From a virus (lineage: Duplodnaviria > Caudoviricetes): DNA of 58,793 nt. Location of the stretch: IMG/VR virus record IMGVR_UViG_3300048790_000047, positions 1-58,793 of that record, one strand, 5' to 3'. The translations under genes and the position numbers were made by a program. The notes below the pieces were generated by a model. It saw only the letters and a program-made list of their open reading frames with translations, ran no database searches and was not told where the DNA came from. This document shows positions 1,932 through 56,683 of the stretch, piece after piece. Every line of letters begins with the position of its first letter. Positions within the stretch are counted from its first letter, which is position 1.

Positions 1932-1946
1932 TTACCGCCACGGTAA
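1932..1946. repeat. Dispersed palindrome TTACCGYNRCGGTAA, first copy
   Basis: TTACCG CCA CGGTAA. Other exact copies start at 4328, 11479, 17551, 19708, 22982, 25457, 26571, 28697, 32739, 35314, 39770, 44619, 50213, 53654 and 56386. Near copies start at 21130, 29762, 31587, 33237, 38791 and 40623. Confidence 0.97.
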
Positions 1947-1956
1947 AGCCAGCACA

Positions 1957-1972
1957 CTAAGATTTTCTTAAC
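1957..1972. promoter_or_regulatory. CtrA-type box (CTAA-N7-TTAAC)
   Basis: ctaa gattttc ttaac, intergenic, upstream of the 1917 gene. Confidence 0.6.
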
Positions 1973-2007
1973 GAAAAGGCCGGCGAAGGATTTCTCCCCG
2001 CCGGCCT
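1973..2007 (-). terminator. Intrinsic terminator after the major capsid gene
   Basis: 9-bp stem aggccggcg/cgccggcct followed on the minus strand by TTTCGTT. Confidence 0.75.
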
Positions 2008-2031
2008 CTAACTTTTTCCGTTAGTCAGGGC

Positions 2032-3042
2032 TTAGCTGCCCGGAGTAACCTGCGCCTGCACGAGGGCCTTGCCGTCGACGATCTGGTAACCGTAGACCTG
2101 GAGGCCGCGCAGGATTTGACCGAAGGTCAACTCCGAACGAAGCGTCTCGACCTTGCTGATCTGGCTCGCGAAAGTCAGACCGTGCGCGTGGCCCGCGTAG
2201 ATCGGCCATTCGCCAGCGTTGAACTGCCCCGGATCGGAGCCGTTGTTCGGCAGCAAGTTGCTGATGTAGATGGTGAAACGGTCCACCATACCCAGCCGCC
2301 CGTTGCGGAGCATCGACACGCTGTCACCCGACAGATACGCCTGGCGGAGTTCGGACTGCTTGATCTGACGACCAGCCCAAGCCGGCATCACGACCCAGCG
2401 GCCCTCTTCCGGGATATTCTGCTCGTCTAGGCACTGGCCCATACGCATCAGAACATCGAGGAGTTCGACCTCGCCACCGGTGGGGTTCTTGGCGACCACC
2501 GAGAGCGCGGAGCCCTGCACGCCGAGGTTCAAGCTACCGGTGATGACACCAGCAGTCGTACCCTGGTTCGCAGCGGCCATTCCGCCGTAGATGCCGGTCA
2601 GAACGTCCTGATCGACAACGATTTTCAGTTGCTGCGCTGCGTCGTCCGACCACATGCTGAGGACATTCAGATCGCTCTGCATCTCCATCACGTCGTCGAG
2701 GATCAGCGAGAAGTACTTACCGTTGCCGATGTACAACTCGACAGTTCCACCCTGCGGACGGTCGAGGCCCAGGAGGCCGTCGGCGTCGTAGTTGTGGATC
2801 GAGATGGTCGGCTTGGTGCGGATTTTCACCCGATCACCCTTGCTTTTGATCTCGCCTTCGTAGTCGGTATTCGAGATCGCAGCCAACACGGTGCTGGCAT
2901 AGAACTTCTCGACGAGCTTGCCCGACCAGATTTCCGGGATGAACCCTGAAGCCTGGAGGCCGTTGCCCGAGGAACCTACCGGGTACAGCGGAGGCGTAGA
3001 GCCTGACGTTGCGCCGGGAAATGAACCGGAAGGAATAGACAT
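2032..3042 (-). CDS. Major capsid protein
   Basis: 336 aa; FIPEIWSGKL..F....VL..ISNTDYEGEI..KGDRVKI N-terminal signature of HK97-fold podovirus capsids; follows the scaffold gene and precedes a terminator. Confidence 0.9.
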   Translation of the reverse strand: MSIPSGSFPGATSGSTPPLYPVGSSGNGLQASGFIPEIWSGKLVEKFYASTVLAAISNTDYEGEIKSKGDRVKIRTKPTISIHNYDADGLLGLDRPQGGTVELYIGNGKYFSLILDDVMEMQSDLNVLSMWSDDAAQQLKIVVDQDVLTGIYGGMAAANQGTTAGVITGSLNLGVQGSALSVVAKNPTGGEVELLDVLMRMGQCLDEQNIPEEGRWVVMPAWAGRQIKQSELRQAYLSGDSVSMLRNGRLGMVDRFTIYISNLLPNNGSDPGQFNAGEWPIYAGHAHGLTFASQISKVETLRSELTFGQILRGLQVYGYQIVDGKALVQAQVTPGS

Positions 3043-4208: not shown

Positions 4209-4445
4209 TTAGGTCGCGGGCTGTTTGGTTTGAGCGGTCAGATGGCACTCTTTGAAGACGCGCAGGAGCGCTCGGGCCTCCTGGGCATGTCCTTGTAAAC
4301 GCAGGATATTTCCTGAGTCAGCGTCCGTTACCGCGACGGTAACGAGATCGACGTGAGCCGTAAGCTCACGCACGAAATTCTCGAACATTTCCGGGGTCGC
4401 ATTGCGCAGGCGCAGGGCGGCAGCACTCAGGGGGGACTGGGCCAC
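4209..4445 (-). CDS. Hypothetical head-module protein
   Basis: 78 aa ORF abutting its neighbours; contains the palindrome copy at 4328. Confidence 0.65.
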   Translation of the reverse strand: MAQSPLSAAALRLRNATPEMFENFVRELTAHVDLVTVAVTDADSGNILRLQGHAQEARALLRVFKECHLTAQTKQPAT

Positions 4446-7900: not shown

Positions 7901-8473
7901 TCAACCTTTGGAGATTGCCAGGACGTTCGGTCCTGTTGCTCCGCCTGGGTTCCAGATACAGCCAACAATCCGAGGATCGGTCGTCGGCGGAATGAGTACG
8001 GTGTGGTTCCGCACAGGTCCTGGTACTCCAGTAGGCCCGGATTGTCCAGTGGAACCTGCGGCACCGGCGTGACCGGTGTTACCTTTGAAGCCCGGACCTG
8101 TGTTTCCAGTCGGACCGGTTACGCCGGTCGGACCCACTGGCATGGCGCCGGTCGGACCAACAAACGGACCCGTCGGACCAGCAACGCCGGTAGGACCAGT
8201 CGAAGCCGAAAACGTAGGACCAACGATACCATGAGGACCAGTCGGGCCGGTCGCGCCGGTAGGACCAGTCTGACCCAACGAAGGACCAGTCGGACCAACA
8301 CCGGCAGGGCCGGTTGTACCTGTGACGCCAGTGGTACCACTCTGCGGACCGGTGGCGCCAGCGGCGCCGGTCGGACCCGGAATGTTGCCCATGTTAATTC
8401 GATCCACGACCTCCTTGAGGGCGCCGGGGATCGAATTGTCGTCGTACGTGGTCGCTGCGCGAACGGTACTCAT
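7901..8473 (-). CDS. Collagen-like fibre protein
   Basis: Extensive GPT/GAT/GVT triplets; C-terminal IPPTTDP..G.IWN domain. Confidence 0.88.
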
Positions 8474-8490
8474 GTCAGCCCTCGTTCAGA

Positions 8491-9054
8491 TTAGCCTGCC
8501 GAAACAGTCAGCACGCCAGCGTTGTTCCACACCTGACCGCTGTTATGCGGATCGGACGTGGGCGGTACGATAAGGAAAGCCTGCGTTCCGGTCGGGCCGG
8601 TTGCGCCGGTCGGACCCGTGGTGCCAGCGCCAGTGGCGCCGGTCGGACCCGTCGGACCCGTGGTGCCGCCAGTGGGGCCGGTTACGCCCGTGACGCCAGG
8701 ACCCGTTGGACCCGTGGTGCCCGCGGGACCAGTCGGACCTGAAGCCTGACCAGTTGGGCCGGTGATACCTTGAGGACCCGTTGCGCCGGTGCCAGTCGGA
8801 CCAGCGGGGCCGGTTGCGCCCGTGCTACCAGCGGGGCCTGCCGGACCTTGCGGACCGCCAGAAGGACCCGTCGGGCCGGTTGAACCCGCGGCGCCCGTAG
8901 GGCCTGCGGGACCGGTGCTTGCACCAGTCGGACCAGTGGGACCGGCAACGCCCGTGGGGCCGCCGATGTTTCCCGCGTTTACTGCGGCAACGACCTGACC
9001 GAGGATGTTGCCGAGGTTATTGCGGTCGATATCAGTAGATGCCGGAATTGTCAT
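8491..9054 (-). CDS. Collagen-like fibre protein (paralogue of 7901..8473)
   Basis: GPT repeats; shares the VV..N.GNI.GPTG N-terminal and PPTSDP..GQVWN C-terminal motifs. Confidence 0.88.
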
Positions 9055-9103: not shown

Positions 9104-9119
9104 TTACTCGATCGTTAAC
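9104..9119. promoter_or_regulatory. CtrA-type box (TTAC-N7-TTAAC)
   Basis: ttac tcgatcg ttaac upstream of the collagen operon; overlaps the portal stop codon. Confidence 0.5.
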
Positions 9120-11418
9120 CGACCCCCGGAGAGATTGGATTGGCGTGCGGACCAGGTGTATTCCCAGCAAGATTGGCGACTTGCGGGCTCATACCGCCAC
9201 CGCCAAGAGGACTTGTTTTTGTACCTTGACCGACGGCAGCGGCGCGCGCGCTATCACCGCCCGGCCCCAAGTCCATCGCAGGATTATTTGTCGCTGGCTG
9301 CTCACCACCGCCCGGCGGAGTGCCGATATGCGCCGGCGGACCTTCACCCATGCCGCCCCGCTCCGCGAGGATACCGGCCGTAAGTTCAGTCGCGATACGA
9401 GCAACGCCCGCTTCAACGCCCTTCTGGACGCCTTCATCAACACGCTGCTGGATTGCGCCGTTGCCATTTTGCTGTTGCTGCTGCTCGGCCTGGGCCATTT
9501 TCTCGATCTGGTCATCAGGCGGCACGATCTCCTCGCCGTCCAAGCCGATTGTGCTTGACACGGAGCGCAGGACTGCGGCGCGACCCTTGATGCCCATGAT
9601 CTTCTGATCGGTCGGGTTGATCGTGGCGCCGAGGAACTCGATCTGACGCTGGCGGAGCGTCTCGCGCTGGATCGCGACACTGACGCCCTGGACGCTGATC
9701 TTTTCTTCGCCGGTCAACAGGCCGGTGTTATCCGTCAGCATAATCAGGTCAGCGAGGTTCAGGAGCGCAGGCTCCATCACATCGTTGTCGACGTTCGCGC
9801 TGACCGACTGCAAAATCTTCGAGGCGTTGCCCATGAGCATGGCAAGGCCGGACGCCGTGCGCCCCGCTCCGCCGCCAGACTGGCCGCCGACGTACTTCGG
9901 GATCGCGGACACGTCGTCTGCGATGGACACAAAATCATTGAACACCTGCACCAACTGAGCGGCGTTTGAAGTCGGCATGAAGAACGAGATCGGGACCTGT
10001 GTGTTATTGCCCACCGGGTCGTTGCGAACGTGCCACCGCTTCCACGGATAAAGGTCGTCACCGTTCTCTTCGGGCGACAGCCGGTCGTCGTTCACGACCA
10101 CTTGCGGACCGGAGGCTATGCTCAAGTTATTGACAAGGCTGCGCAAAGTGGCGTTTGCCACCTCCTGCAAGTCCGACAGCAAATCCGTCAGGCCGTTGCC
10201 CACCGGGGTGCCGGGGACCTTCTCAAACGAGGTCGTAAAGTACGGGTGGCGCTGGCGCGGCGACGGCGACAGTTGTGCCTTGATGACATGCGAGCCAATG
10301 ACCCAGCACTGCACGGAGTAATCGCGAAGCTCGTCAGGGACGGCAAGGCCATATTCCTGGAGGACGCGTCCCTGCACGTTGCCGTTGAACTCCATCATGG
10401 AGATCATGGCCGATCGGTTCCACGCCGGGTTCTCGCGGCTTTCCAGCACGGCGCGCTCGGAGTCGGTGGTGTCCCAATTATCATACAGGCCGCCGCGGCC
10501 GTACTCGTCGAGCACCGCGCGAATTTCGTCGGCGTTGTAACCCGGCAGATCGAGCAGATCGTTTAGCTCGGCGCGTGTGACGCGCAGCTTCTCGATCACG
10601 TCGGCGTTCGCAATGTCCGAAACACCTGGCGTGAACCAGATATCGAACGGCGATACCCGGTTCCACGTCAGCTTCGGGTTCTGCTTTACCGTCGGCGTGC
10701 CACCGCCAGGCGGCCACACAACTTCGGGAACAACCTTGACCACAGGTCCCTTGATGCAGGCGAAGGGGAAGATGGGGAGGTCGACAAGGAACTCAGCCAG
10801 CGCATGATAAAATCCTCCGTCTCGGAGGAGACCTTCGATGGCCGTGTCTGAGTCACGCGCTTGCTGGACGGCTTTCTTTTTCGCGGCATCTTTCGCTGAC
10901 TCAAGGAGCGCTGTTTTGCGTTGCTGTACATCTTGGGGGTCCGGTGGTTGACTAGTTTGCTGTTGGATAAGTTGTGCCTCATGCTGCATCAACTGGTCGA
11001 TGCTCTGCAAGATTTCATCAGGCACGGCGGGGTCGGCAGGGGGCTTGATCGTCCAGGGCTGATCCTGACCCAGATAAATATCCCGCAAAAGAGAACTCGC
11101 TGCCCGGCACTTTTGGGCGATCAGCCGGGCATAAACCTTGCTGCCGCCAAACTTGTTTAGTTCCATGACCTTAGACGGGTCATACTGGCCGTTGAACGAC
11201 CGCAAGGCAGCGAGCAGCCGGTTCGACCAGCCCGCCTCGGTGTTGCGGTGGTTCCGGAAAATCTCAAACTGGCCTTTGATATAGCCGGCAAGCTGCGGCA
11301 CGGCGGGCGCTGCGGGTTGGGCCGCGGCGACCTTATCCCGCGCCTTTTGCTGAAGCTGTTGTTCGAGGGCCGCAGGGGGTACCACCTGCATTACACCCTG
11401 CTGGCCAATATCAGACAT
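9115..11418 (-). CDS. Portal protein
   Basis: 767 aa; VSPFDIWF.PG, PGTPVGNGL.DLL.D.Q..ANA.LR.LVNN and RTASGLAMLMGNA motifs of podovirus portals. Confidence 0.88.
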   Translation of the reverse strand: MSDIGQQGVMQVVPPAALEQQLQQKARDKVAAAQPAAPAVPQLAGYIKGQFEIFRNHRNTEAGWSNRLLAALRSFNGQYDPSKVMELNKFGGSKVYARLIAQKCRAASSLLRDIYLGQDQPWTIKPPADPAVPDEILQSIDQLMQHEAQLIQQQTSQPPDPQDVQQRKTALLESAKDAAKKKAVQQARDSDTAIEGLLRDGGFYHALAEFLVDLPIFPFACIKGPVVKVVPEVVWPPGGGTPTVKQNPKLTWNRVSPFDIWFTPGVSDIANADVIEKLRVTRAELNDLLDLPGYNADEIRAVLDEYGRGGLYDNWDTTDSERAVLESRENPAWNRSAMISMMEFNGNVQGRVLQEYGLAVPDELRDYSVQCWVIGSHVIKAQLSPSPRQRHPYFTTSFEKVPGTPVGNGLTDLLSDLQEVANATLRSLVNNLSIASGPQVVVNDDRLSPEENGDDLYPWKRWHVRNDPVGNNTQVPISFFMPTSNAAQLVQVFNDFVSIADDVSAIPKYVGGQSGGGAGRTASGLAMLMGNASKILQSVSANVDNDVMEPALLNLADLIMLTDNTGLLTGEEKISVQGVSVAIQRETLRQRQIEFLGATINPTDQKIMGIKGRAAVLRSVSSTIGLDGEEIVPPDDQIEKMAQAEQQQQQNGNGAIQQRVDEGVQKGVEAGVARIATELTAGILAERGGMGEGPPAHIGTPPGGGEQPATNNPAMDLGPGGDSARAAAVGQGTKTSPLGGGGMSPQVANLAGNTPGPHANPISPGVG

Positions 11419-11460: not shown

Positions 11461-11513
11461 TTAACAGATGCCTAAGGATTACCGCCACGGTAACGGATTA
11501 AGGGTTTGTTAAC
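11461..11513. promoter_or_regulatory. Divergent portal/terS promoter: two CtrA-type boxes flanking a palindrome copy
   Basis: TTAA-cagatgc-CTAA (11461-11475), TTACCGCCACGGTAA (11479-11493), perfect TTAA-gggtttg-TTAAC (11498-11513). Confidence 0.8.
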
Positions 11514-13397: not shown

Positions 13398-13715
13398 ATG
13401 CCATACGCGAACATCGAGGAGCGTCGTGCTTACCACCAGAACTGGCGGCAGAAGAACCGCCCAAGGCAGCGCCGTGCAAATCTAAAGGCGCTCTACGGGA
13501 TAACGCCAGAACGATATGATCTGATCCTGGCCGCGCAGAACGGCCACTGCGGGATGTGCCCCAGTACATCCCGCCTGGGGGTAGATCACTGCCACAAGAC
13601 AGGTCGCGTACGCGGCATCCTGTGTCGGGTTTGTAACGTCCACCTCGGCGGCCTTGGCGATGATGCCGAGGCGCTTCAACGCGGCCTTAAATATCTGGAA
13701 ACGCCATGTCCATAA
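13398..13715 (+). CDS. Endonuclease VII-like (His-Me) homing endonuclease
   Basis: YGIT...Y......Q..CGMC...VDHCHKTGRVRGILCRVCN. Confidence 0.85.
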   Translation: MPYANIEERRAYHQNWRQKNRPRQRRANLKALYGITPERYDLILAAQNGHCGMCPSTSRLGVDHCHKTGRVRGILCRVCNVHLGGLGDDAEALQRGLKYLETPCP

Positions 13716-44120: not shown

Positions 44121-44383
44121 TTTTTGTTCCAGCCCCGATTTTTGTGCTCTGAAATAACGCGCCAGTTTTTCGGACTGTTACTACCGCCGTCTTTCAGCAT
44201 ATGCTTATGGTCTACATCGCGATGGTCGCCTTTATGCACTTTGCCCTCGCGCATGAGGGTGCGGCGCGCAAGGTGGCGCTCTACGATAGCGTCCTGATGC
44301 TGGACGTTGTAGCCCTTATCCATTTGATGAATTTGGGCCAGCGTCCGATGGCTGGATGGATCGCGTTTGTCATAGTCGCGCAC
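44117..44383 (-). CDS. Small HNH endonuclease
   Basis: GDHRDVDHK..L.DGGSN...N.RVIS...NR. Confidence 0.8.
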   Translation of the reverse strand: MRDYDKRDPSSHRTLAQIHQMDKGYNVQHQDAIVERHLARRTLMREGKVHKGDHRDVDHKHMLKDGGSNSPKNWRVISEHKNRGWNKK

Positions 44384-44394
44384 GGGAGTATTCC

Positions 44395-44592
44395 TTAGCT
44401 GCGCGGGACTATGGCTTTCTCGGATTTGTCCTCGCCCTTAGGCTTCTTGCCTGTGGCGTAGTTCGGGTTGGGCACACCAGCACTGCGGAACGCCTCAGGG
44501 GCGTCCTTCATGAAGTCCTTGGCGCGGGAGGTTACACCGCCGCCCTTGGCGTACGACGCGTTCTGGGGCTTGGAGCCCTTCGAGTAAGCCAT
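44395..44592 (-). CDS. Small basic protein with a YAKGG motif
   Basis: GGAG RBS; palindrome at 44619 and CTAA-N7-TTAA at 44645-44659 upstream. Confidence 0.65.
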   Translation of the reverse strand: MAYSKGSKPQNASYAKGGGVTSRAKDFMKDAPEAFRSAGVPNPNYATGKKPKGEDKSEKAIVPRS

Positions 44593-44655
44593 GACAGTCT
44601 CCGTGCGGTGGCGTTTGGTTACCGCCACGGTAAGCAGGGACCCCCTAAAAATCCG

Positions 44656-47600: not shown

Positions 47601-49314
47601 TTGAGGCCGGCGGCGGGAACTTCTCGAACGCAGACTTCACAGCCGTGTACGCGCCCTGCTTACGGGCAATGTCGGCTTTGCTGCGGCCAGTGACGTTGAG
47701 ACCGTCCACAACCGGCGCCTTCGACGGCACGCGAACCGTTGTACGTTCTGACTGGCCCGTGCGGCCAGTCTTCGCCGCAAGATACTGCGCTGCGAGCACC
47801 GCCTGTTTCGCAGGGGGAGCCTTCTCGAGGGCGTCAGCAACTTCGTTGGCGCCGATCTCGCGCATATGCGATATGGCTTCGGTAACAACTTTTGGCTGGG
47901 GACCCGTACCGGTCCGTTCGCCGCCCATATCGAGCGCCATAGTACCATTTGCCCGCTGCACCATCTGCGGTTGGCGCGCGTCTGCCATCGCCTGTAGGCG
48001 ATCATGATCGAGACCACGCTCGGCCAAGTGACCGGGCAGTTCTTCGTCAGATATATCATGCCCTGCGGCTTCGTCGTGCGGTCCAGCCTCGTAGGCATCG
48101 GGCTGCGCGTTAGCAGGGAGCGTGTCGTCCTCGCCAATAGCGGCATCGCCATAGTCGGCTTCGCTCTTGGGCTCGTGGTACGCGTCAGGATCGAGCGTGA
48201 TACCCTTATTCTCTTTGGGTGCGATCCCAGTGTCGAGAGGGAGGGACTCACCTGAGAGGGCGAGTTTCTCCGCCGGCGCCACGCCGTTCTCGATAGGCGT
48301 GATCGCGCCGTTCGGCTCGCCGCCACTCATGTCGATACCCTTAGGGTATTCACGCTCCGAGCGCTGCGGTGCGCTTTGCTCATTGCCCACCGTGTCCGGC
48401 GGGTACTCAGCGTTGACCGGCGGGTTATCCGCCGCGATACCTGGGGCAGTCGTCGTCACGTCGTCCTGGTCAACCGCGGCCGCGTCAGCTTCTTTATTAG
48501 GTGCATCTTGGTCAGGGCGACCGGGTGTGTTCGGGCCAGCGTGACCCGGCATAAGGCGCGCAGTCCCCGAGCGAGGTTCGTTGAACACGGCGCCAAGGAC
48601 GCCAGACACCGCGGCCTGTTTCCAGTCGATTGGCTGGTCGCTGCCCTTAGTGAGTTCTTGCTGCCCAACGTCAAAGCCCGCCATGCCGCCGCCAGTGAGC
48701 AAGCGTGATGCGAGGCTCCCTGCCAATTTGCCAGACTTGAACGCAGCAACGCTTTCGATACCCTGTGCAACGAGTGCAGCGTTCGGGTTGGCAGCGTCGT
48801 TCGCCTGGTTCTGAGCAGTGTCGTCCAGTCCGAGGGCGCGCTTGATAAGGTCCTGTGCTTTGCCAGCGATCCAGCCAGCACCTGCGCCAGCAACACCAGC
48901 ACCGATGAACCCGCCAACAGGTATCGAAAGACCGCCGGTGAACGGCGCCAATGGGGCACCGGCGGCGGCGCCGGCTGCAAAACCGGGACCCATCGCAGGG
49001 AGAGACGCTGCAAAAGGAAGCGCTTCGTCGGCAACGTGGCGCACGACGCTCCCGATCGGGCCTTCAGCTTGGGGTTTATCTTCAGCGGGAGCATACCCCG
49101 CGGCCTTGGCTTCCTCTGGCGTCATTACGCCGGGATCGACCTCGTGCGCAGGGGCGTACCCTGCCGCGCGTGCCTCTTCATCGGTCATTACATCGGAAGC
49201 AGCAGGGGCGTCAGATTGGGGCGCAGACGCAGGGCTACTAGCCTCGTCAGCAGGGGCGTACCCTGCCGCGCGTGCCTCTGCGTCGGTCATAACGTCGTCG
49301 TCAGTGTCGGCCAC
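44656..49314 (-). CDS. Large internal virion / DNA ejection protein
   Basis: 1552 aa, Ala/Gly-rich hydrophobic segments, three N-terminal VMT..EA.AAGYAPA repeats; last of three large genes after the tail genes. Confidence 0.7.
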   Translation of the reverse strand: MADTDDDVMTDAEARAAGYAPADEASSPASAPQSDAPAASDVMTDEEARAAGYAPAHEVDPGVMTPEEAKAAGYAPAEDKPQAEGPIGSVVRHVADEALPFAASLPAMGPGFAAGAAAGAPLAPFTGGLSIPVGGFIGAGVAGAGAGWIAGKAQDLIKRALGLDDTAQNQANDAANPNAALVAQGIESVAAFKSGKLAGSLASRLLTGGGMAGFDVGQQELTKGSDQPIDWKQAAVSGVLGAVFNEPRSGTARLMPGHAGPNTPGRPDQDAPNKEADAAAVDQDDVTTTAPGIAADNPPVNAEYPPDTVGNEQSAPQRSEREYPKGIDMSGGEPNGAITPIENGVAPAEKLALSGESLPLDTGIAPKENKGITLDPDAYHEPKSEADYGDAAIGEDDTLPANAQPDAYEAGPHDEAAGHDISDEELPGHLAERGLDHDRLQAMADARQPQMVQRANGTMALDMGGERTGTGPQPKVVTEAISHMREIGANEVADALEKAPPAKQAVLAAQYLAAKTGRTGQSERTTVRVPSKAPVVDGLNVTGRSKADIARKQGAYTAVKSAFEKFPPPASNLPPGPPSSEYVAALRDRLQGALDHAKEANGGKDPLGKLKDGGYQPAKKDAAYAWLKAAKKLVGGRMTTNDIAKFTADELQLRSGKAEDVENVNQTRRIKADSELRRAPTVEQAEATRAQDFPGETPHEDAEATTTPEPITDASQIKEPTGKTLDLTKPDTYVDPASITGNFKNIEAERLRLQAEKTARLKALKEAAQAEKSESPAKKFASDESGALDLQKVKDAAKRANDKINEIRTPSKEEIAEMEKPGSFRAKNAASPAEEYSRSIDDDLFKNTKKNEQNKVDNGKVADEARADPNYTDADRKQAYKAQEGGALQHLPAKLKAAYDKYTQPILDKNTVIRDAIKKLAGKNFVGPDVVNHVRRVLDNGASELDPNASANQTADPTQNRDLATRRRGTLKDRAFYALERVKDGQRTIMSPNSKGFTQWQNRVGKQVTDPGFEYKDGKQVKIGNDTYKMTEALTDEIEKHAMLNGKPVKYLQDAHLSAVAANQELTEVYNSLKYVDDLKAKANTPGTVENKYMTTDKKRAEDEGFEKTEMDTFNRPGSQWYMAPELKEVFDDYNKPGLSENGWDSARKLSQNVTKTLFWLPVKHILNVGAHWTIHRGAGWVTPEGWKQLAKTAPVAIRDVINQGPIQKEMREVGAANIYGGVATQDFVNNIARKLGHEIQSNAGQYKFIADHLGVGLGEIAAKIYDVSKHTMWAVNDMLNTQAYLEAKARGFTPKAAANYIAKDIPTYRMPTRLAGSRMLSKVYSDPLGFSFSRYHNGVINAMANTIKDARSGTKSQRVDAAARMILLGAIAYFVYPQLDKAAKYITGNNFASIARSGPWAVTSTLADTREGRADPTQAFRNIASVSPLLSAAKELYDNRDFAGRTIMSPGDVSAAMHGSVTAAGRVGVQAGEHAVRGLVSPFNTGENAGAKGLGLASGIRDEALAIKNPSPASSKFQIEAQKKANQEAINRFKKPRGSLERAYDYYTSPL

Positions 49315-49325: not shown

Positions 49326-51107
49326 TTACTGCGCTACTTTCACGTATCCCGGCGGGGGGCGCTTACCCCCAGCGGAAGGTTGAGTCTGTCCTGGTGCAGG
49401 CGCCTGCGGGGCCTGGACCTGAGGAGCTTGATCCTGCGGAGCTTGCGGTTGCTGTCCATTTTGAGGCACAGCGGCGTACATAGCGTTCAGCACCTTGGTT
49501 GCCTGCGGTGTCAACTGACCACCGGTAAGGGGCATATTGGTAATTTCCCGGTCCAACGCACCGGCAGCGGCCTGGAACTGTTTACCCATGAGGCCCATCT
49601 TGGCGGCCTGGATCACGCCGTCTCGACGAAGGCTCTCCGCGTCGACAAGCCCCTTGGCACGGTTAGCCGACGATGCTTCACGCGAGCTTGCGTTCATCGC
49701 TGCGACGTTCTCCGCGGTATTACCGCGAATACTCCACGCCTTCGCGGCGTTCTCGCCCTGGGTTTTGGCGACTGTCACCTTGTTACCTTGGTCCGCGCGC
49801 TCTTTCATCGTGTCCTGTATCCACTTGTTGCGCTGTGGCTGCGCATCGGTGCCGGGGAACATTTCGTTGCCCTGGGCAACCAAGTCAGCCGGCAAAGTAG
49901 ACTTAGGCACGACGGAGTGGCTACCGCGCTTTGCCATCGCTGCATCGTCGTTGATATCGTTCTGATCGTCAGCCGCGCTCACGCGCGAACTCCCAGCGGA
50001 GTCAGGCGCTTGATCAGTATAACCTGGCGCACGGCCCGCGCCGAACTTGGCGTCGGCTGGTTGAATTTGGTCCAGCCCCTTGGTGAGGGACGCGATTACA
50101 GCCGGGCCGCTCTTTTCGTACACGTTGTCATACTGGCCATCAGGCCCGTTGACGAATTTATTGTACGCCTGCACAGGCATCTGAACCTGTTTTGTTTGGG
50201 CGCCGGGCGTGGTTACCGCCGCGGTAACGGACTTGCCGTCAACGCCGGGCTGGAACACGATGCTCGTGCCATCGAGCATGTTCGAGTACGCCTTGGTCGC
50301 GTACTGCGTCGACGCTGCGAGGTTCGGTGGTTTCCCATTGGCCCCGTTGAGCGCTGCGCCGGCGACCGCCTTCCATGCGTCATATTTTTGGCGATAGTGC
50401 TGCACGATGCCCCATGCTTTCGACGGGTCGCCCTGGCCATCCTCGCCGCCGGCCGCCGCCTGCACGGTCAGGAGTTTGCGCGTACCCTCGTCCATCTGCC
50501 CCTGCGGGTCGACTTGCTGCTCGATCTGCTGCACGGCCTGCGGGGGAGCCGCATCGGCGCCCTGGAGGTAGCGCATGATCTTGGCGCCCGCGCCCTGGAC
50601 CGCTCCCACGGCCGCTTGCACCGGCGGGTTATCAGTTGTGAGCGCGCCAGCGACTTTGCCCGGCGCGGCAGCGATATCGTTAATCGCGCCCTGGCTGATC
50701 GCTCCACGTCCTTGCGGCGTATCACCGGTAAAGATCGAGTTGTCAGGCGAGTTGGCCTGGTATGCGTCCGCTGCGGGTTCGCTATCAGGCGCGCCGCTTG
50801 CACCGGGCGCAAACTGCGCAGCAGGGCCAGCTTGATATGCGGCAGCAGCAGGGTCTTCGTCGACCGCGCCGCCTTCGTCAAAAGATATAGCGCCCTGTTG
50901 CGCGGGAGCTTGCGCGCTGTCATCCGAAGAGCCAGCACCGCCCAAGCCATTCAGCTTGCGGCCGTAGTCCATCGCCGCGTCGACGATATCGAGCGCGCCG
51001 TTGATATCAGGCTGACCCTGACCTTGCGAAGGATCAGCGCCAATGTTGATGGCTCCGCCGGCTGCGTAACCCATAGGCTGAGTACCTGGCATAGTTGAGA
51101 GAGACAT
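49326..51107 (-). CDS. Putative internal virion protein
   Basis: 593 aa, Ala/Gln-rich; YAAGGAI and FDEGGAV motifs. Confidence 0.65.
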   Translation of the reverse strand: MSLSTMPGTQPMGYAAGGAINIGADPSQGQGQPDINGALDIVDAAMDYGRKLNGLGGAGSSDDSAQAPAQQGAISFDEGGAVDEDPAAAAYQAGPAAQFAPGASGAPDSEPAADAYQANSPDNSIFTGDTPQGRGAISQGAINDIAAAPGKVAGALTTDNPPVQAAVGAVQGAGAKIMRYLQGADAAPPQAVQQIEQQVDPQGQMDEGTRKLLTVQAAAGGEDGQGDPSKAWGIVQHYRQKYDAWKAVAGAALNGANGKPPNLAASTQYATKAYSNMLDGTSIVFQPGVDGKSVTAAVTTPGAQTKQVQMPVQAYNKFVNGPDGQYDNVYEKSGPAVIASLTKGLDQIQPADAKFGAGRAPGYTDQAPDSAGSSRVSAADDQNDINDDAAMAKRGSHSVVPKSTLPADLVAQGNEMFPGTDAQPQRNKWIQDTMKERADQGNKVTVAKTQGENAAKAWSIRGNTAENVAAMNASSREASSANRAKGLVDAESLRRDGVIQAAKMGLMGKQFQAAAGALDREITNMPLTGGQLTPQATKVLNAMYAAVPQNGQQPQAPQDQAPQVQAPQAPAPGQTQPSAGGKRPPPGYVKVAQ

Positions 51108-52872: not shown

Positions 52873-52887
52873 TAAACAGACGCTTAA
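52873..52887. promoter_or_regulatory. CtrA-type box (TAAA-N7-TTAA)
   Basis: taaa cagacgc ttaa upstream of the 52829 gene; overlaps the upstream stop codon. Confidence 0.5.
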
Positions 52888-53516
52888 AACGCCTTATTGT
52901 AGGTCATATACGCGACCGCCGGCAGGTGCTCTATGCTGAAGGTGAAGATGTTGAACACGTTAAGGGGGGACAGAAGATCGTGATTACCCTCGTATGGGCC
53001 AATAACGGTCTGAGTTATCAGCCCGGTAGCCGGATCAGGCACGTTCGTCGTCAATTCCGGGTAGGGCTGGGACGAGCTAGAATACGAGATAATCTGCTCC
53101 GTGGGGTTTGACCCCACCGGCGCATAGTACGAATAGCTGGGATCAGTGACTTTTCCACCGGCAGGAAGCGGCCCTGGAACGCCAGTGTCAAAGCCGTTCA
53201 GCGCAGTCATATACGGGCCGGCATACCCTTCGAGCACTATTCCGCCGTCAAATGTCGCTACGTATGTGATCGCGCTGATGCAATCAGAATACTTCACGCC
53301 GCTGAAGATGCTACCGAGATTGGGCGACCCAGACGAAACTAGGGTGCTATACTCGGCGGCGCTTATCGGAACCCAATATGCCGGAAATGCCCCTGGCCCA
53401 GGTAGATTGGCGCTCTTCACATAGATTTTGTTCTGGGCCGGCCCGGTCGGGTTTACGCCCGAGCGCCAGTGCACAGCCGTTATCTGTTCAAGAAAGTCTT
53501 CTGCGTAATCGACCAT
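52884..53516 (-). CDS. Hypothetical virion/tail protein
   Basis: 210 aa in the tail operon. Confidence 0.6.
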   Translation of the reverse strand: MVDYAEDFLEQITAVHWRSGVNPTGPAQNKIYVKSANLPGPGAFPAYWVPISAAEYSTLVSSGSPNLGSIFSGVKYSDCISAITYVATFDGGIVLEGYAGPYMTALNGFDTGVPGPLPAGGKVTDPSYSYYAPVGSNPTEQIISYSSSSQPYPELTTNVPDPATGLITQTVIGPYEGNHDLLSPLNVFNIFTFSIEHLPAVAYMTYNKAF

Positions 53517-53519
53517 AGG

Positions 53520-53909
53520 TTACTGTCCCGAGGGGTCCCCGGTTGCAGCACGGTTCCATATCCACTTTTCGCCGGTGATCGAGTCCCCCATCGTAAGCTG
53601 GTTGATGCGAAGCACGTCAATGTACTGCGTCTTGTCGCTTGGATTGTAAATCCTTACCGTCGCGGTAACGCGACTGCCGGGAAGCTCCACCCACCGGCCG
53701 ACGGTCTTTCCGCTGCCGCCAGCAACATTGACTCCGCCGCTTTTGGCAAGGAGCCCAGAAGTCAGGGACACGATGTTATTGAGCGCAGCGACGGACGCCA
53801 TCAGGCCAGCGATAGTCGGCGTTGGCGGGATCACTCCGGTCAGCTTGATGTTCGGCGCCGACGCAGCAGGCGTGAGCGGCTTCACGTAGCAAATTGGTGC
53901 GTTGGCCAT
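53520..53909 (-). CDS. Hypothetical virion/tail protein
   Basis: 129 aa; start overlaps the upstream stop; contains the palindrome copy at 53654. Confidence 0.65.
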   Translation of the reverse strand: MANAPICYVKPLTPAASAPNIKLTGVIPPTPTIAGLMASVAALNNIVSLTSGLLAKSGGVNVAGGSGKTVGRWVELPGSRVTATVRIYNPSDKTQYIDVLRINQLTMGDSITGEKWIWNRAATGDPSGQ

Positions 53910-56683
53910 TACACATCTCCTAGCTCGTGCACCGTCGGCGCAACCTGCATATTGGAAATGAGCACGCGCGCATTAAGCTCGAACTGCCACTGCTCGACTT
54001 TGTAGCCCGAAATGATGCGCAGGAGTTCGCCAGACTTGCGGAGTTCGCGAACCGTCACGAGATTGCCATCCGCGAACACGCGGACAATTCCGTACTGACC
54101 CGTTGCGAGGGTGTTCCACGCAGGGTCGTCCGTCTCAAGCTCCTGGCGCTTCGCAGACTGTGTGGGTGTGTTTGGCGGCACAGTGAAGAACACCCGCATA
54201 GCCGACAAGTTCGCCTTCGCCTTCTGCTGATATATTTTTGAGCGCCACGTATAAGGCTGAATGAGCGGAGCCTCGTCAGTGAAGTCAAAGTAGTACACAC
54301 CCCCGTTCTGCACGAGCAGGCCGATGCCTGTCCACGGGTCGGTGAGCACATTCTGAATGTCAAAGCCATTGGGCGAGCCCAACGAGTTGAACCCGAGGCG
54401 GTGGCCGCCTGGCTGTGGCCAGATCGAAAAGCTCTGCGCGTCGGACGGGTTGAGTTCAATCGTGAACCCTTGCTGCGCATAGGTGTCGACGCCATTGGTG
54501 ACAGACCCATATGCAAAGTAGGACGACGCCAAAAGAATGGCGCGCGTAGACATAGGCGGCGTGAGCTTCGCCCAGTTCTCGCGGGTGATCCACAACTCAG
54601 TTGTGTTCGTCGCCTGGCCGAAAGACGTGACCAATATCAAGCCGTTCAGGCTCGTGTAATACACGCCGGTGTCGCCACCTAGGATCGACCCGCGCGAACT
54701 GCACGGCTCTTTTAGGGCCGACTTTGAGAGCGCCATGTTGGCCGGGTTAACGCCGGTCAACGTGTAGGGCGTGCCCGATGTGCAGACGACAAGCGTTTGT
54801 CCCGTCACGCCAAGTCCCACGATCGGGAACTCAGTCGTAACAACATAAGACGGCGGCCACGCGTGCGGGAAATACGGCTCGCTGAACCAGACCTCGTTAC
54901 CTTTGAAGCCGACGGTCATGCCATTAGGCATCGCGACAATCCCGAGGAGCCCTTCCGGCGGCGGGAACCACAGGGTGCTGGGCATCTGCAAGTTGAAGGC
55001 GACCACTACATCTGAGAGCGTGTCGATCACCTGACCGGCCGGGGAGCCGGCCACAACCGTGCCGTTCGTACCCCCAGTGACGGACACCGTATTGTTGTTC
55101 GACAGCGTGACAGCCCCGGTGGCGATATCAATATCGCACACCCAGAAGAACACAGTCTGGCCTGTGGCGCCGCTGACAGTCCGGTAGAGGCGGATCGTCT
55201 TGAGGTTGCGCGCAACGCCCATGTCATCAGGCGGCGGACCGAACGTGTCCACCGTCCATGTGCCGTTGTCCCAGCCGTTTACAAGCGTGGGCGGGCTGGG
55301 CGGACCCTCTTCGCCATATTCCGTGATCCAGGTGTAAACATACGCGCGCGCCTCGATCACCGACGAAGTCGTGAGGTCACCCCACATCTGCCAATCGGGC
55401 TGGCCACCGGCCATCGCAGGCGCTTCGCCGGGAGGACCGTTCGTCCAAGTCGCAGCCTGCGCGCCGTTACCCGCGTTCGCGTTATCGTCAGCCAGCGCAA
55501 TCGGGATCGCCGTATCCATGAGGAAGCCAATCCAGTACTGGGTGTCCATCAGGAGCCCAGTTGGATTGACGAACTGTGACGACAGCGCAACGCTGATCTG
55601 GCATCCAGTCACGATAGCGCCGGTGTTTAGAAGCTGCCCTGGCGTCCCGTTATTGTCATCGTATACGACCGCGGCGAAGTTGGCCGTAGTGCTGAGGGCC
55701 AGCGGCATGAGCGAGACTTCGTTGAGCGTCATAGCGCCGGTGGGCGTAACCGGCGTCAGGATCAGCATGTTGCCACCTGGCGTAGCGCTATTTGTCGAGA
55801 TTGAATTAGGGAAGCCTAGCTGCGCGCTGTCGCCGCCACCGGTGACGGACACCATAGGTTCGCAACCCGGCGCGGGCACGCCCAATAGCCACGGCGCCTG
55901 TCCGGCGCTAATACGCGCGTGCGTGTTGTACTGTGGCGGCAGCGACGGACTGGCAAAATAGTAGCGGTCGTATTGGTCATCGACGACTGGCGAGCGCAAC
56001 ACGTTCGTGTCCGGGTCCGCGAACTCCAGCCACGTCGCGGCACCGGTGATCGAGCTATCGAAATTCGGGTTTATGCCTCCCGTAAAATAGGGAGTGGCCC
56101 AGCTAAAGCGCGCGCCGCTAGTCGACTCAGCGACAGCCAGCGTATTATACGCCTCGCCATAGTCTGCGGCCTGGACGTAGATAACCGCGCCATTGATGGT
56201 GTTAGGTGCAAACGTCGTAGGATTTTTGAGGGCGCCCGACAGATCGAGCGCTGTGTTCGCGCTGGTATCGGTGCCATACAAGACGCCGGCATTGGTAGAG
56301 AGCCCGTTGTCCGCCGTGAGTGCGTCAAGCAGATTTTGAGCGCTTATTGCAGCCGTAGCGCCAATGAGCACGTCGAACGCGTTCGTTACCGTCGCGGTAA
56401 ACTTGTACGTCATCTCCCCGAGTGTCACCGTGTCACCTTCATGGGGGACACCGAGGACCGTCAGCGTGTCGCTCGCGGCGGCCTGCGTGACTGTGGGTAC
56501 GCGATAGACGTACTTGGCAGCGCTGTTCAAAAGCGTGCGCAGGAGCTTCGGCGTGCGCCATCCGTTGAGGGCACCTGAGAACAGATACCCGTTTACGGAG
56601 TTCGCAGCCTGCCCCGCTGGCAGAAGATGGTCATCCCATGCCGGCAACATTCCGCCATATTGATCGAGCTTAATGCCCGGCAT
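53909..56683 (-). CDS. Tail tubular/nozzle (stabilisation) protein
   Basis: GM.P....LLP...A, LGVPAP, RAYVYTW...GEEGPPS, WFSEPY.PHAWP, Y.WRSK motifs; apparent insertion domains. Confidence 0.75.
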   Translation of the reverse strand: MPGIKLDQYGGMLPAWDDHLLPAGQAANSVNGYLFSGALNGWRTPKLLRTLLNSAAKYVYRVPTVTQAAASDTLTVLGVPHEGDTVTLGEMTYKFTATVTNAFDVLIGATAAISAQNLLDALTADNGLSTNAGVLYGTDTSANTALDLSGALKNPTTFAPNTINGAVIYVQAADYGEAYNTLAVAESTSGARFSWATPYFTGGINPNFDSSITGAATWLEFADPDTNVLRSPVVDDQYDRYYFASPSLPPQYNTHARISAGQAPWLLGVPAPGCEPMVSVTGGGDSAQLGFPNSISTNSATPGGNMLILTPVTPTGAMTLNEVSLMPLALSTTANFAAVVYDDNNGTPGQLLNTGAIVTGCQISVALSSQFVNPTGLLMDTQYWIGFLMDTAIPIALADDNANAGNGAQAATWTNGPPGEAPAMAGGQPDWQMWGDLTTSSVIEARAYVYTWITEYGEEGPPSPPTLVNGWDNGTWTVDTFGPPPDDMGVARNLKTIRLYRTVSGATGQTVFFWVCDIDIATGAVTLSNNNTVSVTGGTNGTVVAGSPAGQVIDTLSDVVVAFNLQMPSTLWFPPPEGLLGIVAMPNGMTVGFKGNEVWFSEPYFPHAWPPSYVVTTEFPIVGLGVTGQTLVVCTSGTPYTLTGVNPANMALSKSALKEPCSSRGSILGGDTGVYYTSLNGLILVTSFGQATNTTELWITRENWAKLTPPMSTRAILLASSYFAYGSVTNGVDTYAQQGFTIELNPSDAQSFSIWPQPGGHRLGFNSLGSPNGFDIQNVLTDPWTGIGLLVQNGGVYYFDFTDEAPLIQPYTWRSKIYQQKAKANLSAMRVFFTVPPNTPTQSAKRQELETDDPAWNTLATGQYGIVRVFADGNLVTVRELRKSGELLRIISGYKVEQWQFELNARVLISNMQVAPTVHELGDV

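Follow-up and report, generated by a model that had tools for sequence, protein, structure and literature searches.

A 15-bp palindrome repeated across podovirus genomes related to Rhizobium phage RHph_TM27A co-occurs with a gene cassette beside the DNA polymerase gene

Short sites scattered over phages and plasmids

Cluster A mycobacteriophages such as L5 and Bxb1 carry two dozen 13- to 14-bp stoperators genome-wide, many of them in short intergenic gaps. These sites are asymmetric and oriented with transcription, are read by one phage protein with a specificity that varies among related phages, and belong to temperate phages with an HTH repressor and an integrase. In the Streptomyces phage phiC31, a palindrome of approximately 17 bp (the CIR) occurs in many copies at intergenic junctions genome-wide and is bound by repressor c. 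The KorB operators (OB) of the IncP plasmid RK2 and the parS/ParB sites are 13- to 16-bp palindromes present in about a dozen copies per replicon of ~60 kb, both at promoters and far away from them, and their dimeric reader acts globally. REP elements are short palindromes found just after stop codons and dependent on a cognate RAYT transposase gene.

The stretch of DNA analyzed here (the window; 58,793 nucleotides) is the whole genome of an uncultivated podovirus, kin of the Rhizobium phages RHph_TM27A/B. Like stoperators, its 15-bp palindrome is a short site present in many copies over a whole phage genome with lineage-specific variants, but it is perfectly palindromic, about half of its copies are intragenic, and neither a repressor nor an integrase gene was found. 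Unlike the intergenic CIRs, many copies here are coding. No homolog of phiC31 repressor c was found, its Pfam family was not among the matches of members of A1 (a cassette protein described below) at an E value of ≤1, and the only lead was a weak language-model one (0.81) for an A1 homolog. KorB and parS sites share the scattered short palindrome, but the replicon here is a lytic-looking podovirus, and Pfam scans of 69 ORFs contained no ParB/KorB-type (ParBc) or ParA-type protein. With REP elements, the likeness is in placement after stop codons and a presence tied to a gene; in contrast, no RAYT-like gene accompanies the copies described here, which are exact, evenly spaced, and also present in coding sequence.

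Copy number, placement, and variants of the palindrome

The palindrome is a real, conserved signal. All 16 exact copies of TTACCGNNNCGGTAA (TTACCG-N3-CGGTAA) were located at exactly the positions given in a preliminary description of this genome, and the Y-N-R spacer claimed there was present in each; 100 dinucleotide-preserving shuffles gave no copy (mean, 0; maximum, 0). Allowing up to two mismatches, 27 matches were found (16 exact, 7 with one mismatch, and 4 with two), compared with 1.87 ± 1.52 (maximum, 10) in shuffles. The five one-mismatch copies listed earlier were all recovered (21130 to 21144, 31587 to 31601, and 33237 to 33251, with those starting at 38791 and 40623), and two omitted from that list were added, at 30474 to 30488 within the DNA polymerase gene and at 36696 to 36710 within the SNF2 helicase gene. 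The reported two-mismatch copy at 29762 is also present, with further matches of this kind at 16006, 28859, and 33264, a level at which chance alone predicts about two. Using the gene set of the codon-preserving shuffle, 5 of the exact copies were placed as intergenic, 2 as crossing an ORF edge, and 9 as intra-ORF, 3 of the latter no more than 35 nt from an ORF end (26571, 28697, and 35314). This shuffle, which had been proposed with the preliminary description, was run for 300 replicates with noncoding DNA kept as is and did not reproduce the coding copies (mean, 5.35, and maximum, 7, versus 16 observed). As this count approximates that of the untouched intergenic copies, the 9 intra-ORF and 2 ORF-edge copies are not a by-product of protein sequence and codon usage, and selection acts at the DNA level. 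The plus strand carries 31 TTACCG half-sites, 16 of them within palindromes, against approximately 13 expected from base composition; lone half-sites are not enriched, and both halves are therefore required. Across 160 sites, all 15 positions were informative, including the central Y-S-R, with none informative beyond ±2 bp.

Sites occur at approximately one per 3.5 kb across the whole genome, with a higher density in the early/replication arm, as had been described. Spacing is even: the coefficient of variation of circular gaps was 0.43 to 0.86 in 11 of 11 genomes, versus ~0.92 for random placement, with a smallest gap of 578 bp, and evenness reached a P value of <0.02 in 6 of the 11. Sites are mostly wedged between a stop codon and the following ribosome-binding site, directly 3' of the stop and 6 to 30 nt ahead of the next start, where the same junctions in motif-less relatives have just 9 to 12 nt. 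The copy at 32739 to 32753 lies 2 nt past the stop of the MazG-like gene, a junction where 8 of 11 other motif-bearing genomes also have a site; the TAA of the copy at 35314 to 35328 is the stop codon of ORF 35041-35328, with the next start 18 nt on; and that at 44619 to 44633 follows a gene for a 1,552-aa product, its junction holding a site in 7 of the 11 motif-bearing genomes that have a homolog. The one-mismatch copy at 38791 to 38805 fills a 38-nt junction (38785|38824) in which seven other genomes have exact copies. Copies at 17551 to 17565 and 19708 to 19722 are intergenic in the early region, that at 11479 to 11493 is in the divergent portal/TerS intergenic region, and that at 1932 to 1946 (TTACCGCCACGGTAA) lies where ORF 1507-1941 (minus strand) is predicted to start, 86 nt downstream of the stop codon of the major capsid gene. 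Further copies accompany the cassette: 22982 to 22996, 26 nt upstream of the A1 start; 26571 to 26585, at the start of ORF 26557-26931; and 28697 to 28711, 63 nt upstream of A2, where at least five other genomes also have a site.

Within coding sequence, the copy at 4328 to 4342 is read as V-T-V-A-V-T in the small ORF 4209-4445 (minus strand), a column kept in six genomes. That at 25457 to 25471 lies in an HNH-like ORF (25224-25673), at the same relative place as in the homolog in genome G002, and the copy at 50213 to 50227 lies in gene 49326-51107 (minus strand), which has a copy at 0.33 to 0.50 of its length in seven genomes. Others are at 39770 to 39784, in the indel-rich 3' part of gene 38824-39894; at 53654 to 53668, in ORF 53520-53909 (minus strand); at 40623 to 40637 (one mismatch), in the primase/helicase gene; and at 56386 to 56400, read as F-T-A-T-V-T in the internal-virion-protein gene, with copies in near, not identical, columns in four other genomes.

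Three of the four CtrA-like boxes in the window lie within 4 to 11 bp of a palindrome copy (P = 0.0005), namely, 10 nt from the copy at 1932, 4 nt from that at 11479 (a TTAA-N7-TTAA box), and 11 nt from that at 44619; these copies thus lie inside likely late promoters. Across 12 genomes, five such cases were found versus 1.1 expected, three of the five from this window, and the adjacency is not general. Folding of RNA gave a core hairpin of approximately −5 kcal/mol, with a z score of <−2 in one of eight contexts and U tracts absent, in agreement with the earlier statement that these are not terminators. No enrichment of terminator-like and promoter-like sites was found over 15 to 35 kb.

The search of related phages called for in the preliminary description found the motif conserved in 11 of 16 whole relatives, with 7 to 21 exact copies each and none of a reversed control pattern. 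The palindrome-bearing genomes are described as soil phages. The cultured phage RHph_TM27A has 31 copies of TTACC-N5/6-GGTAA within its first 50 kb, including the form GTTACC-N6-GGTAAC, and 12 of the 31 fall outside annotated coding sequences, noncoding DNA making up 11%. Symmetric variants occur as TTACGG-N3-CCGTAA (18 copies in G009) and TTACTG-N3-CAGTAA (6 copies in G007), and spacers of N2 and N3 both occur among lineages. G009 is the sister of the TTACCG-bearing G012 in the portal tree (support, 96/92). Homologs of ORF 4209-4445 retain the peptide VTVAVT, with ACC changed to ACG and GCG to GCC in G009, and by this comparison one lineage switch of the motif consisted of synonymous changes in both arms. 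A close relative with a portal 77% identical (G008) is motif-less. In distant cassette-bearing phages, the palindromes take the form AACCTACA-N3-TGTAGGTT, with arms of 8 to 10 bp in distant relatives, but are restricted to ~7 kb of the early region, and small local palindrome clusters also occur in the cassette-less phages L199 and L166; both observations count against the reading favored below.

A cassette beside the DNA polymerase gene

The gene set that tracks the motif is a plus-strand cassette at 23022 to 29538 that the preliminary description did not mention. Its first gene, A1 (23022 to 23723), encodes a 233-aa all-helical protein of no known family and is present in TM27A and in each of the 12 fetched genomes that bear the motif, and in none of 4 motif-less genomes. 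It is followed by a gene for an AAA+ ATPase (24084 to 25220; phrog_1297), AAA_5/MoxR-like by language-model and structural look-alikes, and by A4 (25704 to 25970), which encodes a small acidic protein with a core of ~88 aa and lies between the ATPase and vWA genes. A small protein with the conserved motif RFRSFAERY (26557 to 26931) is found in 8 of the 12 motif-bearing genomes. A5 (26928 to 28172) combines a DUF2201_N domain (HExxH) with a DUF2201 vWA-like domain carrying the MIDAS motif DxSxS, and A2 (28774 to 29538; 254 aa, no known fold) adjoins the DNA polymerase gene and occurs only in close motif-bearing genomes.

Using HMM searches of near-complete genomes, motif and cassette were found together in 14 and both were missing from 4, with no discordant genome. 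In a set of 53 polymerase loci having 7 kb or more of upstream sequence, a palindrome was present in at least five copies at 29 of 36 cassette-bearing loci versus 1 of 17 cassette-less loci. Against this link, the cassette-bearing loci L186, L187, and L226 have no more than three copies of any palindrome, and G016 (70% complete) has seven copies with no vWA gene found in that portion. On the portal tree, the co-occurrence needs two changes, and an AU test did not reject a single clade of three motif-less genomes (P = 0.235); it may rest on few evolutionary events.

The structure models of A1 and A2 are confident (pLDDT, 83 and 82) and gave no informative match. For A1, the best PDB hit by Foldseek had an E value of 0.84, the VIA Z score of 6.6 reflected only a generic helical hairpin, and matches in BFVD were limited to two uncharacterized phage proteins; for A2, the best Z score was 4.7. 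PADLOC models did not match the ATPase, vWA, A4, or A2 proteins and matched A1 only weakly (DrmMI; E = 0.0054). MoxR/vWA pairs are protein remodelers, and we know of none linked to DNA sites, which counts against tying the palindrome to the cassette. The nearest parallel in gene content is with "ternary" conflict systems and gene pairs of the vWA-MoxR type (Kaur, Burroughs, Iyer, and Aravind, eLife 2020, PMC7159879), in which a MoxR/AAA_5 AAA+ ATPase likewise stands beside a vWA protein with an intact MIDAS and small partners. The cassette differs in the HExxH peptidase-like domain (DUF2201_N) of its vWA protein and in the accompanying palindrome, as no DNA motif is described for those systems in the literature searched.

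Candidate readers and the role of the sites

The preliminary description proposed a selected element that is not a terminator and is bound by a dimeric protein, and to this extent it agrees with the data; the binders that it named do not. None of the three tracks the motif: for ORFs 22144-22488 and 19161-19496, Pfam and PHROG gave no match and BLASTP gave no relative (E ≤ 1e−5) in any of 10 related genomes, a set in which 8 have the motif or a symmetric form of it, and the CtrA-like winged-helix protein (16561 to 17334) occurs in 15 of 15 fetched relatives, including all 4 motif-less ones. ParB/KorB-type, repressor-type, and integrase genes were not found, so the episome-partition and L5-like repressor versions of that proposal have no gene to rest on.

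The sites might instead serve DNA transactions (programmed nicks or breaks, recombination hot spots, or priming and restart of recombination-dependent replication) carried out by the replication/recombination module that holds the cassette, an account that we regard as possible but doubtful. Even spacing genome-wide, copies in long genes whatever the gene function, and the position of the cassette directly upstream of the DNA polymerase gene would suit it, as would neighbors that include an Mre11-like exonuclease, endonuclease VII, a RecB-family exonuclease, a VRR-NUC protein, and an SNF2 helicase; the constant cassette core, however, has no recognizable nuclease or recombinase. An exonuclease gene between TerS and TerL (phrog_284; 12287 to 13396, plus strand) co-occurs in 10 of 11 fetched motif-bearing relatives, but its absence from G010 and the lack of a tblastn match within the first 50 kb of TM27A mean that it is not obligatory. 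Contigs from two peat metagenomes jump between copies exactly at the palindrome: in X2, sequence from the left of the 4328 copy continues into sequence from the right of the 35314 copy, two loci with just 18 nt in common by their flanks, and in X3, the 26571 copy runs into the left flank of the 4328 copy in inverted orientation. These joints were seen in assembled contigs and may be chimeras of the library or of the assembly. Pairs of closely related contigs stay collinear across the sites, without rearrangement there, and the ends of blocks between G002 and G003 show no clear tie to sites. That the element is a small hairpin in RNA (an intercistronic stabilizer or a processing or translational coupling signal) or in single-stranded DNA, met by a structure- and sequence-specific factor, is unlikely. 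Placement directly after stop codons, covariation of stem positions 5 and 6 among lineages (CCG/CGG, CGG/CCG, and CTG/CAG), centers of 2 to 6 nt, and the longer arms of distant relatives are as expected of a stem, but within a single genome the stem is invariant and does not covary, the weak core is missing from the minimum-energy fold in two of eight contexts, and no Rfam family matched. Position 7 stays Y and position 9 stays R although the two are noncomplementary (C..A in 6 of 16), which fits two half-sites rather than pairing; one-mismatch copies in plus-strand genes give A-C rather than G-U on the mRNA strand, and the third to half of copies that are intra-ORF would be melted by ribosomes.

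A host protein, such as an alphaproteobacterial regulator or nucleoid protein, could read sites that the phage accumulated, the cassette link being indirect. The frame of the 15-bp site, TTAC-N7-GTAA, is similar to the CtrA box (TTAA-N7-TTAA), which three window copies abut, and no phage DNA-binding protein could be assigned; yet sister phages differ in variant (G012 and G009), close motif-less relatives exist, and the spacing in TM27A is unexplained by a CtrA-type direct-repeat reader. Searching GTTACCG-N3-CGGTAAC in one genome per bacterial species gave, among the matches listed, scattered single ones in unrelated taxa and no bacterial genome with many copies, and we consider a host reader very unlikely. 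More improbable still is a selfish origin, in which the palindromes would be REP-like mini-elements that a phage-borne activity spreads and from which the phage gains nothing. They do look like discrete 15-bp insertions at junctions, missing from motif-less relatives, and are bound to a particular gene set much as REP elements are to RAYT genes; PHROG and Pfam scans (99 and 69 ORFs), however, detected no HUH/RAYT-type transposase. Even spacing, positions conserved across genomes at ~50% protein identity, and intragenic copies that arise by point substitutions preserving the reading frame point to selection for the sites.

We favor, with moderate confidence, the reading of (G)TTACCG-Y-S-R-CGGTAA(C) as a selected, cis-acting double-stranded DNA site that is read by a two-fold symmetric, sequence-specific factor of the phage lineage and is functionally tied to the cassette. 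The two-fold symmetry, the need for both halves, and the lineage-specific symmetric variants would fit a dimeric reader specified by the phage lineage itself, although spacers of 2 and 3 (or 5 and 6) together in one genome are unusual for a rigid dimer. No DNA-binding domain was identified in any cassette protein, and for this reason protein binding, the identity of the binder, and the effect of binding are matters that we infer. On this reading, the phage would maintain its sites over the whole genome by fitting 15 bases, at gene junctions, into the gap that separates a stop codon from the ribosome-binding site after it and by writing them into long genes via tolerated codons, and the sites would be functionally linked with A1, the MoxR-like AAA+ ATPase, the small acidic protein, and the HExxH-peptidase/vWA(MIDAS) protein. 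Most likely, an array of DNA-bound protein would act in an operator-like manner, as a global silencer or as an organizer of the phage chromosome, and the loading, remodeling, or stripping of this protein at a defined point of the infection would fall to the AAA+/vWA-peptidase pair.

Form and statistical support of the palindrome

All 16 exact copies of TTACCG-N3-CGGTAA reported in the preliminary description were found where it had placed them, and none occurred in 100 dinucleotide shuffles of the window. Each has the Y-N-R spacer it had noted; its list of one-mismatch copies was correct but two short, as seven are present. Allowing up to two mismatches raised the total to 27, where 1.9 would be expected; besides the 16 exact copies, 7 carried one mismatch and 4 carried two, the two-mismatch class being close to chance level. 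When synonymous codons were permuted within each of 61 ORFs and noncoding DNA was kept as is, a mean of 5.35 copies (maximum, 7) remained, compared with the 16 observed. As these shuffles leave only the intergenic copies, protein sequence and codon usage do not account for the 9 to 11 coding copies. Lone half-sites were near the level expected from composition by our own arithmetic, indicating that the selected unit is the entire palindrome.

A logo built from 160 sites in 10 genomes gave the symmetric consensus (G)TTACCG-Y-S-R-CGGTAA(C), with no information more than 2 bp outside it. Y7 and R9 are kept though they are not complementary, which fits two 7-base half-sites on opposite strands rather than base pairing. 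In every variant identified, the half-site centers are 8 to 11 bp apart, approximately one helical turn. The RNA hairpin predicted for the core is weak (approximately -5 kcal/mol), reached a z score below -2 relative to shuffles in one of eight contexts, and went unused in two of the eight. No U tracts were found at the copies, a terminator scan flagged just two of them, both on the antisense strand, and neither promoter-like nor terminator-like sites were enriched between 15 and 35 kb. The weak folding, missing U tracts, and unconserved flanks led us to reject the palindrome as a terminator or a promoter, and the earlier statement that the copies are not terminators therefore holds. Two other apparent palindrome signals, ACCGG-N5-CCGGT in loci L063 and L058 and the most frequent k-mers in genome G008, were rejected as collagen-like G-X-Y repeats of tail-fiber genes; such repeats dominate k-mer counts at 7901-9054 of the window and in these three relatives.

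The phage, its relatives, and the placement of sites

The record, a single 58,793-bp IMG/VR entry labeled "linear" with a CheckV completeness of 93%, has podovirus-like gene content. PHROG scans of 99 ORFs identified genes for the major head protein (2032-3042, minus strand), portal/adaptor (9115-11418, minus strand), TerL (13706-15160, plus strand), and family-A DNA polymerase (29551-31446, plus strand), together with a SNF2 helicase, a primase/helicase, internal virion proteins, and, at the right end, an endolysin and a holin. The minus-strand structural operon exits at the left end and resumes at the right end, so the record represents a permuted circle. Scans for tRNAs and Rfam families gave no match in the window. 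The early region at 17300-22100 has low GC (0.52) and small ORFs lacking relatives even in the closest genomes, implying rapid turnover there. A 1,552-amino-acid protein of the virion module (44656-49314) has no PHROG, Pfam, or PADLOC match, and its relatives within the clade are only 26 to 35% identical.

No phage record near-identical to the window was found. The closest isolates are the Rhizobium phages RHph_TM27A/B, TM29, and TM3_14A (portal identity, 58%), and IMG/VR contains 476 stretches coding for portal relatives and 566 coding for DNA polymerase relatives. The phage itself also occurs, almost letter for letter, in contigs from at least four other peat metagenome runs; across four peat runs it is nearly identical, with one substitution and one 1-base deletion listed. 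A metagenome scan for the locus around the copy at 4328 gave no match, in a set from which the window's own genome and records close to it may be missing.

The search of related phages that had been proposed recovered 7 to 21 exact copies in 11 of 16 whole related records, and a reversed control pattern was absent from all 16. Two of the five "empty" records carry a symmetric variant instead, with 18 copies of TTACGG-N3-CCGTAA in G009 and six of TTACTG-N3-CAGTAA in G007. Centers of 2 and 3 bases are mixed in G011, G001, and G019, and within the first 50 kb of the cultured phage RHph_TM27A (TM27A), (G)TTACC-N5/6-GGTAA(C) occurs 31 times. Coding copies never use the frame that would give a stop codon; the frame xTT ACC GYS RCG GTA Axx (V-T-V/A-A/T-V-T) was used in 39 of 49 cases and the reading Y-R-x-G-K in the others, an example of the latter being the conserved YRYGK of the polymerase. 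Homologues of ORF 4209-4445 keep the peptide VTVAVT, with ACC replaced by ACG and GCG by GCC in G009, a change that, read from the codons, is a synonymous, two-sided switch to the variant of G009 itself. In the internal-virion-protein gene, copies of different genomes occupy neighboring, nonidentical alignment columns, indicating that the site has been re-created there and not merely inherited. The element is real, strongly selected, and widespread.

Many site positions are syntenic between genomes at approximately 50% protein identity, including those after the MazG-like gene, at the 38785/38824 junction, after the gene for the 1,552-amino-acid protein, and upstream of both A2 (a gene of the cassette discussed below) and the small acidic protein; several long genes also contain syntenic copies. 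Junction copies sit between a stop codon, from which they are 0 to 3 nt away or with which they share the TAA, and the following gene's ribosome-binding site. The stop-to-start gap after the gene at 38327-38785 is 12 nt in G008 and 9 nt in G018, both of which lack the motif. By the deposited annotation of TM27A, 12 of its 31 sites lie outside coding sequences though 89% of the DNA is coding, and seven lie 1 to 8 nt past a stop. The coefficient of variation of circular gaps was 0.43 to 0.86 in all 11 genomes tested, compared with approximately 0.92 for random placement (six of these genomes reached P < 0.02), and the smallest gap between sites in these genomes was at least 578 bp. Even spacing and placement together were read as selection to cover the entire chromosome, for which junctions would be the cheapest places, long genes being used where a junction is not at hand.

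Just four CtrA-like boxes, (N)TAA-N7-TTAA, are present genome-wide (1957-1971, 11498-11512, 18967-18981, and 44645-44659). Three of them, identical in sequence (TTACCGCCACGGTAA) and situated upstream of late genes on the minus strand, are 4 to 11 bp away from a copy of the palindrome; at least those copies therefore overlap likely promoters. This adjacency was rejected as a general rule, as it is limited to the window and is not general in relatives. The two elements also differ in form: the CtrA box consists of TTAA direct repeats 7 apart, whereas the palindrome is a TTAC-N7-GTAA inverted repeat, with N8 between TTAC and GTAA in TM27A. A CtrA-like winged-helix protein is encoded at 16561-17334. 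A CtrA regulon was not borne out by tracking this gene, which is present in all 15 relatives fetched, including four without the motif. A TTTTTAA element is conserved after the gene for the 1,552-amino-acid protein (44634-44670 in the window and the corresponding junctions of G010, G012, G003, G002, and G011). It lies 10 to 11 nt upstream of the palindrome in G012, G003, G002, and G011, reads TTTTTAG in G000, and is present without the palindrome in G010; it is possibly a promoter or a CtrA half-site.

Co-occurrence with a MoxR/vWA gene cassette

Presence of the cassette beside the polymerase gene was scored by BLASTP, tblastn, and HMM searches across 16 whole genomes. Four of its genes, A1 (23022-23723), the AAA+ ATPase gene (24084-25220), A5 (26928-28172), and A2 (28774-29538), were found in all 12 motif-bearing genomes fetched and in none of the four motif-less ones (G008, G018, G014, and G027); A4, encoding a small acidic protein, follows the motif likewise in HMM searches. 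Adding G004 and G013, scored on the motif and the vWA gene, 14 near-complete genomes have both motif and cassette, 4 have neither, and none is discordant. G016, which is 70% complete, has seven copies, and the vWA gene is absent from the part recovered. TM27A carries A1 (EVB29_028, 97% by hhalign, elsewhere in the genome), the ATPase gene (EVB29_051), A4, and A5. A2 was not found in TM27A, EVB29_056 showing no similarity to it, and the exonuclease had no match within the first 50 kb. The TM27A record (MN988461.1; L125) marks an "attL" at 24636-24649 and labels the gene at 42248-45331 a "putative integrase"; by the PHROG matches of its homologue in the window, the predicted product is a primase/helicase rather than an integrase, and no integrase was seen.

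Among 53 polymerase-centered loci with at least 7 kb upstream, which are related and include some duplicates of one phage, 29 of the 36 cassette-bearing loci and 1 of the 17 cassette-less loci had a palindrome in at least five well-separated copies. Two state changes are required on the portal tree, and three gene trees place G008 among motif-bearing genomes; in an AU test, however, a single motif-less clade was not rejected (P = 0.235). Three loci (L186, L187, and L226) have the cassette and at most three copies of any palindrome. In distant cassette-bearing phages, AACCTACA-N3-TGTAGGTT is confined to approximately 7 kb of the early region. Distant relatives whose polymerase is 36% identical carry perfect palindromes of 19 to 21 bp, AACCTACA-N3-TGTAGGTT and AACCTAGTTT-N-AAACTAGGTT (L230, 1793-9617; G035, 33805-40332; G036, 40988-44355), those of L230 lying mostly between predicted ORFs of the early/cassette region, with two abutting a TAA stop and GGAG. 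The early regions of two cassette-less loci hold local clusters, five copies of TAGGACA-N3-TGTCCTA in L199 (1075-5130) and four of GCGCAA-A-TTGCGC in L166 (2531-5340), which are probably operators of an early regulator.

The paralogous HNH-like genes at 25224-25673 and 37923-38336 (phrog_3377/8790) are confined to few relatives, with BLASTP relatives only in G012 and G002 among the first ten genomes. The former interrupts the ATPase-A4 pair, has an HTH-like C-terminal stretch, and contains a palindrome copy whose relative position matches that in the G002 homologue. In the peat samples, loose ends at 25578/25907 and 38071/38104 point to variants that lack these insertions.

The ATPase had no Pfam AAA match; its neighbors by language model and structure belong to AAA_5/AAA clusters, including one named MoxR (TM scores, 0.76 to 0.85). 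A5 combines DUF2201_N, with an invariant HExxHN, and a vWA-like domain (DUF2201, 21 bits above the cutoff) in which D-x-S-G-S, GGGGT, and FTDG are all invariant and form a complete MIDAS site, and it had no relative in a search of one genome per bacterial species. A MoxR-type AAA+ ATPase is accordingly adjacent to a vWA protein with a MIDAS motif, and these features define the cassette as a MoxR/vWA-peptidase remodeling pair with phage-specific partners. In 8 of 12 genomes, a small RFRSFAERY protein is encoded between A4 and A5. Structure prediction was confident for both A1 and A2 (pLDDT, 83.2 and 81.6, respectively), and no informative match emerged from PDB sequence search, Foldseek against PDB, or a VIA-wide structure search. 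The A1 family comprises 297 representative clusters and 320 homologues, all unnamed; its members and 30 distant homologues gave no nameable Pfam family, and A1, the sole protein searched in BFVD, matched two uncharacterized phage proteins there. In PADLOC, A1 had a weak match to DrmMI (E = 0.0054), and the exonuclease, the ATPase, A4, A5, and A2 had none. None of the cassette proteins can yet be named as a DNA reader.

Candidate functions and known site arrays

To our knowledge, whole-genome arrays of one binding site are found in very few systems, namely, stoperators, phiC31 CIRs, and KorB operators. Each of these revealed a global control principle. Stoperators of Cluster A mycobacteriophages resemble the present array in having many copies of one short site genome-wide, but they are asymmetric and oriented with transcription, whereas the element described here is a perfect palindrome. 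PHROG, Pfam, and NCBIfam scans, which small DNA-binding proteins can escape, detected neither a stoperator-type HTH repressor nor an integrase. The phiC31 repressor c family (Pfam Phage_Repressor_c) was not among the matches of 10 A1 members at E ≤ 1, and repressor c is a language-model neighbor of an A1 homologue at 0.81 only. ParB and KorB sites (parS/OB) are likewise 13- to 16-bp palindromes scattered over a replicon; ParBc had no match in 69 ORFs at E ≤ 0.01, a threshold that a divergent member could escape. With repressor, ParB, and integrase genes not found in these scans, the partition and L5-like repressor readings offered in the preliminary description lack a supporting gene, and the three binders it named are either not conserved or found also in motif-less genomes. 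No RAYT-type HUH (Y1) transposase was detected in PHROG and Pfam scans. Similar in kind to stoperators, CIRs, and KorB operators, the array differs from them in being palindromic rather than oriented, in its many coding copies, and in that no repressor, ParB, or integrase gene was found; it adds a further form to the genome-wide binding-site arrays of phages and may be more than that. The host-genome search for the motif that had been suggested, covering one genome per bacterial species, gave scattered single matches among the matches listed.

We give an even chance to the reading that the palindromes are sites of a phage-specified, 2-fold symmetric DNA-binding factor functionally coupled to the cassette. 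As a guess, the bound array would silence or organize the phage chromosome, and the AAA+/vWA-peptidase pair would set or remove it. In the main rival, the palindrome is a site of DNA transactions. It is best supported by the even spacing, by the location of the cassette within the replication/recombination module, and by two contigs from different peat runs that cross between copies exactly at the palindrome. One passes from the left flank of the 4328 copy to the right side of the 35314 copy; in the other, joined at 26585, the 26571 copy continues into the left flank of the 4328 copy in inverted orientation. Both are either products of recombination or chimeras that arose precisely at the motif. 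However, breakpoints of mosaicism or rearrangement gave no clear signal at the sites, and we judge a DNA-transaction site unlikely. A further reading, put forward as a tentative and rather doubtful possibility, is that the palindromes are the DNA "address" of a new phage machine. A MoxR-type AAA+ ATPase and the HExxH/vWA protein, together with A1 and a small acidic adaptor, would in this case work on the DNA itself or on an array of protein at evenly spaced marks, possibly to switch the genome between silent and active states or to start or resolve replication and recombination.

The array's companion genes are a vWA-MoxR pair of the kind treated in PMC7159879. In an abstract-level literature search, no description was found of a DNA motif linked to vWA-MoxR systems, nor of the palindrome, RHph_TM27A, or a palindrome tied to phage MoxR/vWA genes. 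Should the palindromes be such an address, a vWA-MoxR pair would for the first time have a DNA-site-directed role, in a system common to hundreds of phages from soil, peat, and the rhizosphere, cultured Rhizobium phages among them. As TM27A is cultured and has both a motif variant and the cassette, bench tests are feasible. Present in a large group of phages, most of them uncultivated, the array switches specificity cleanly and symmetrically between sister genomes, and is absent from relatives without the AAA+/vWA-peptidase cassette; it thereby offers a testable handle on the role of phage MoxR/vWA pairs and on that of the array itself.
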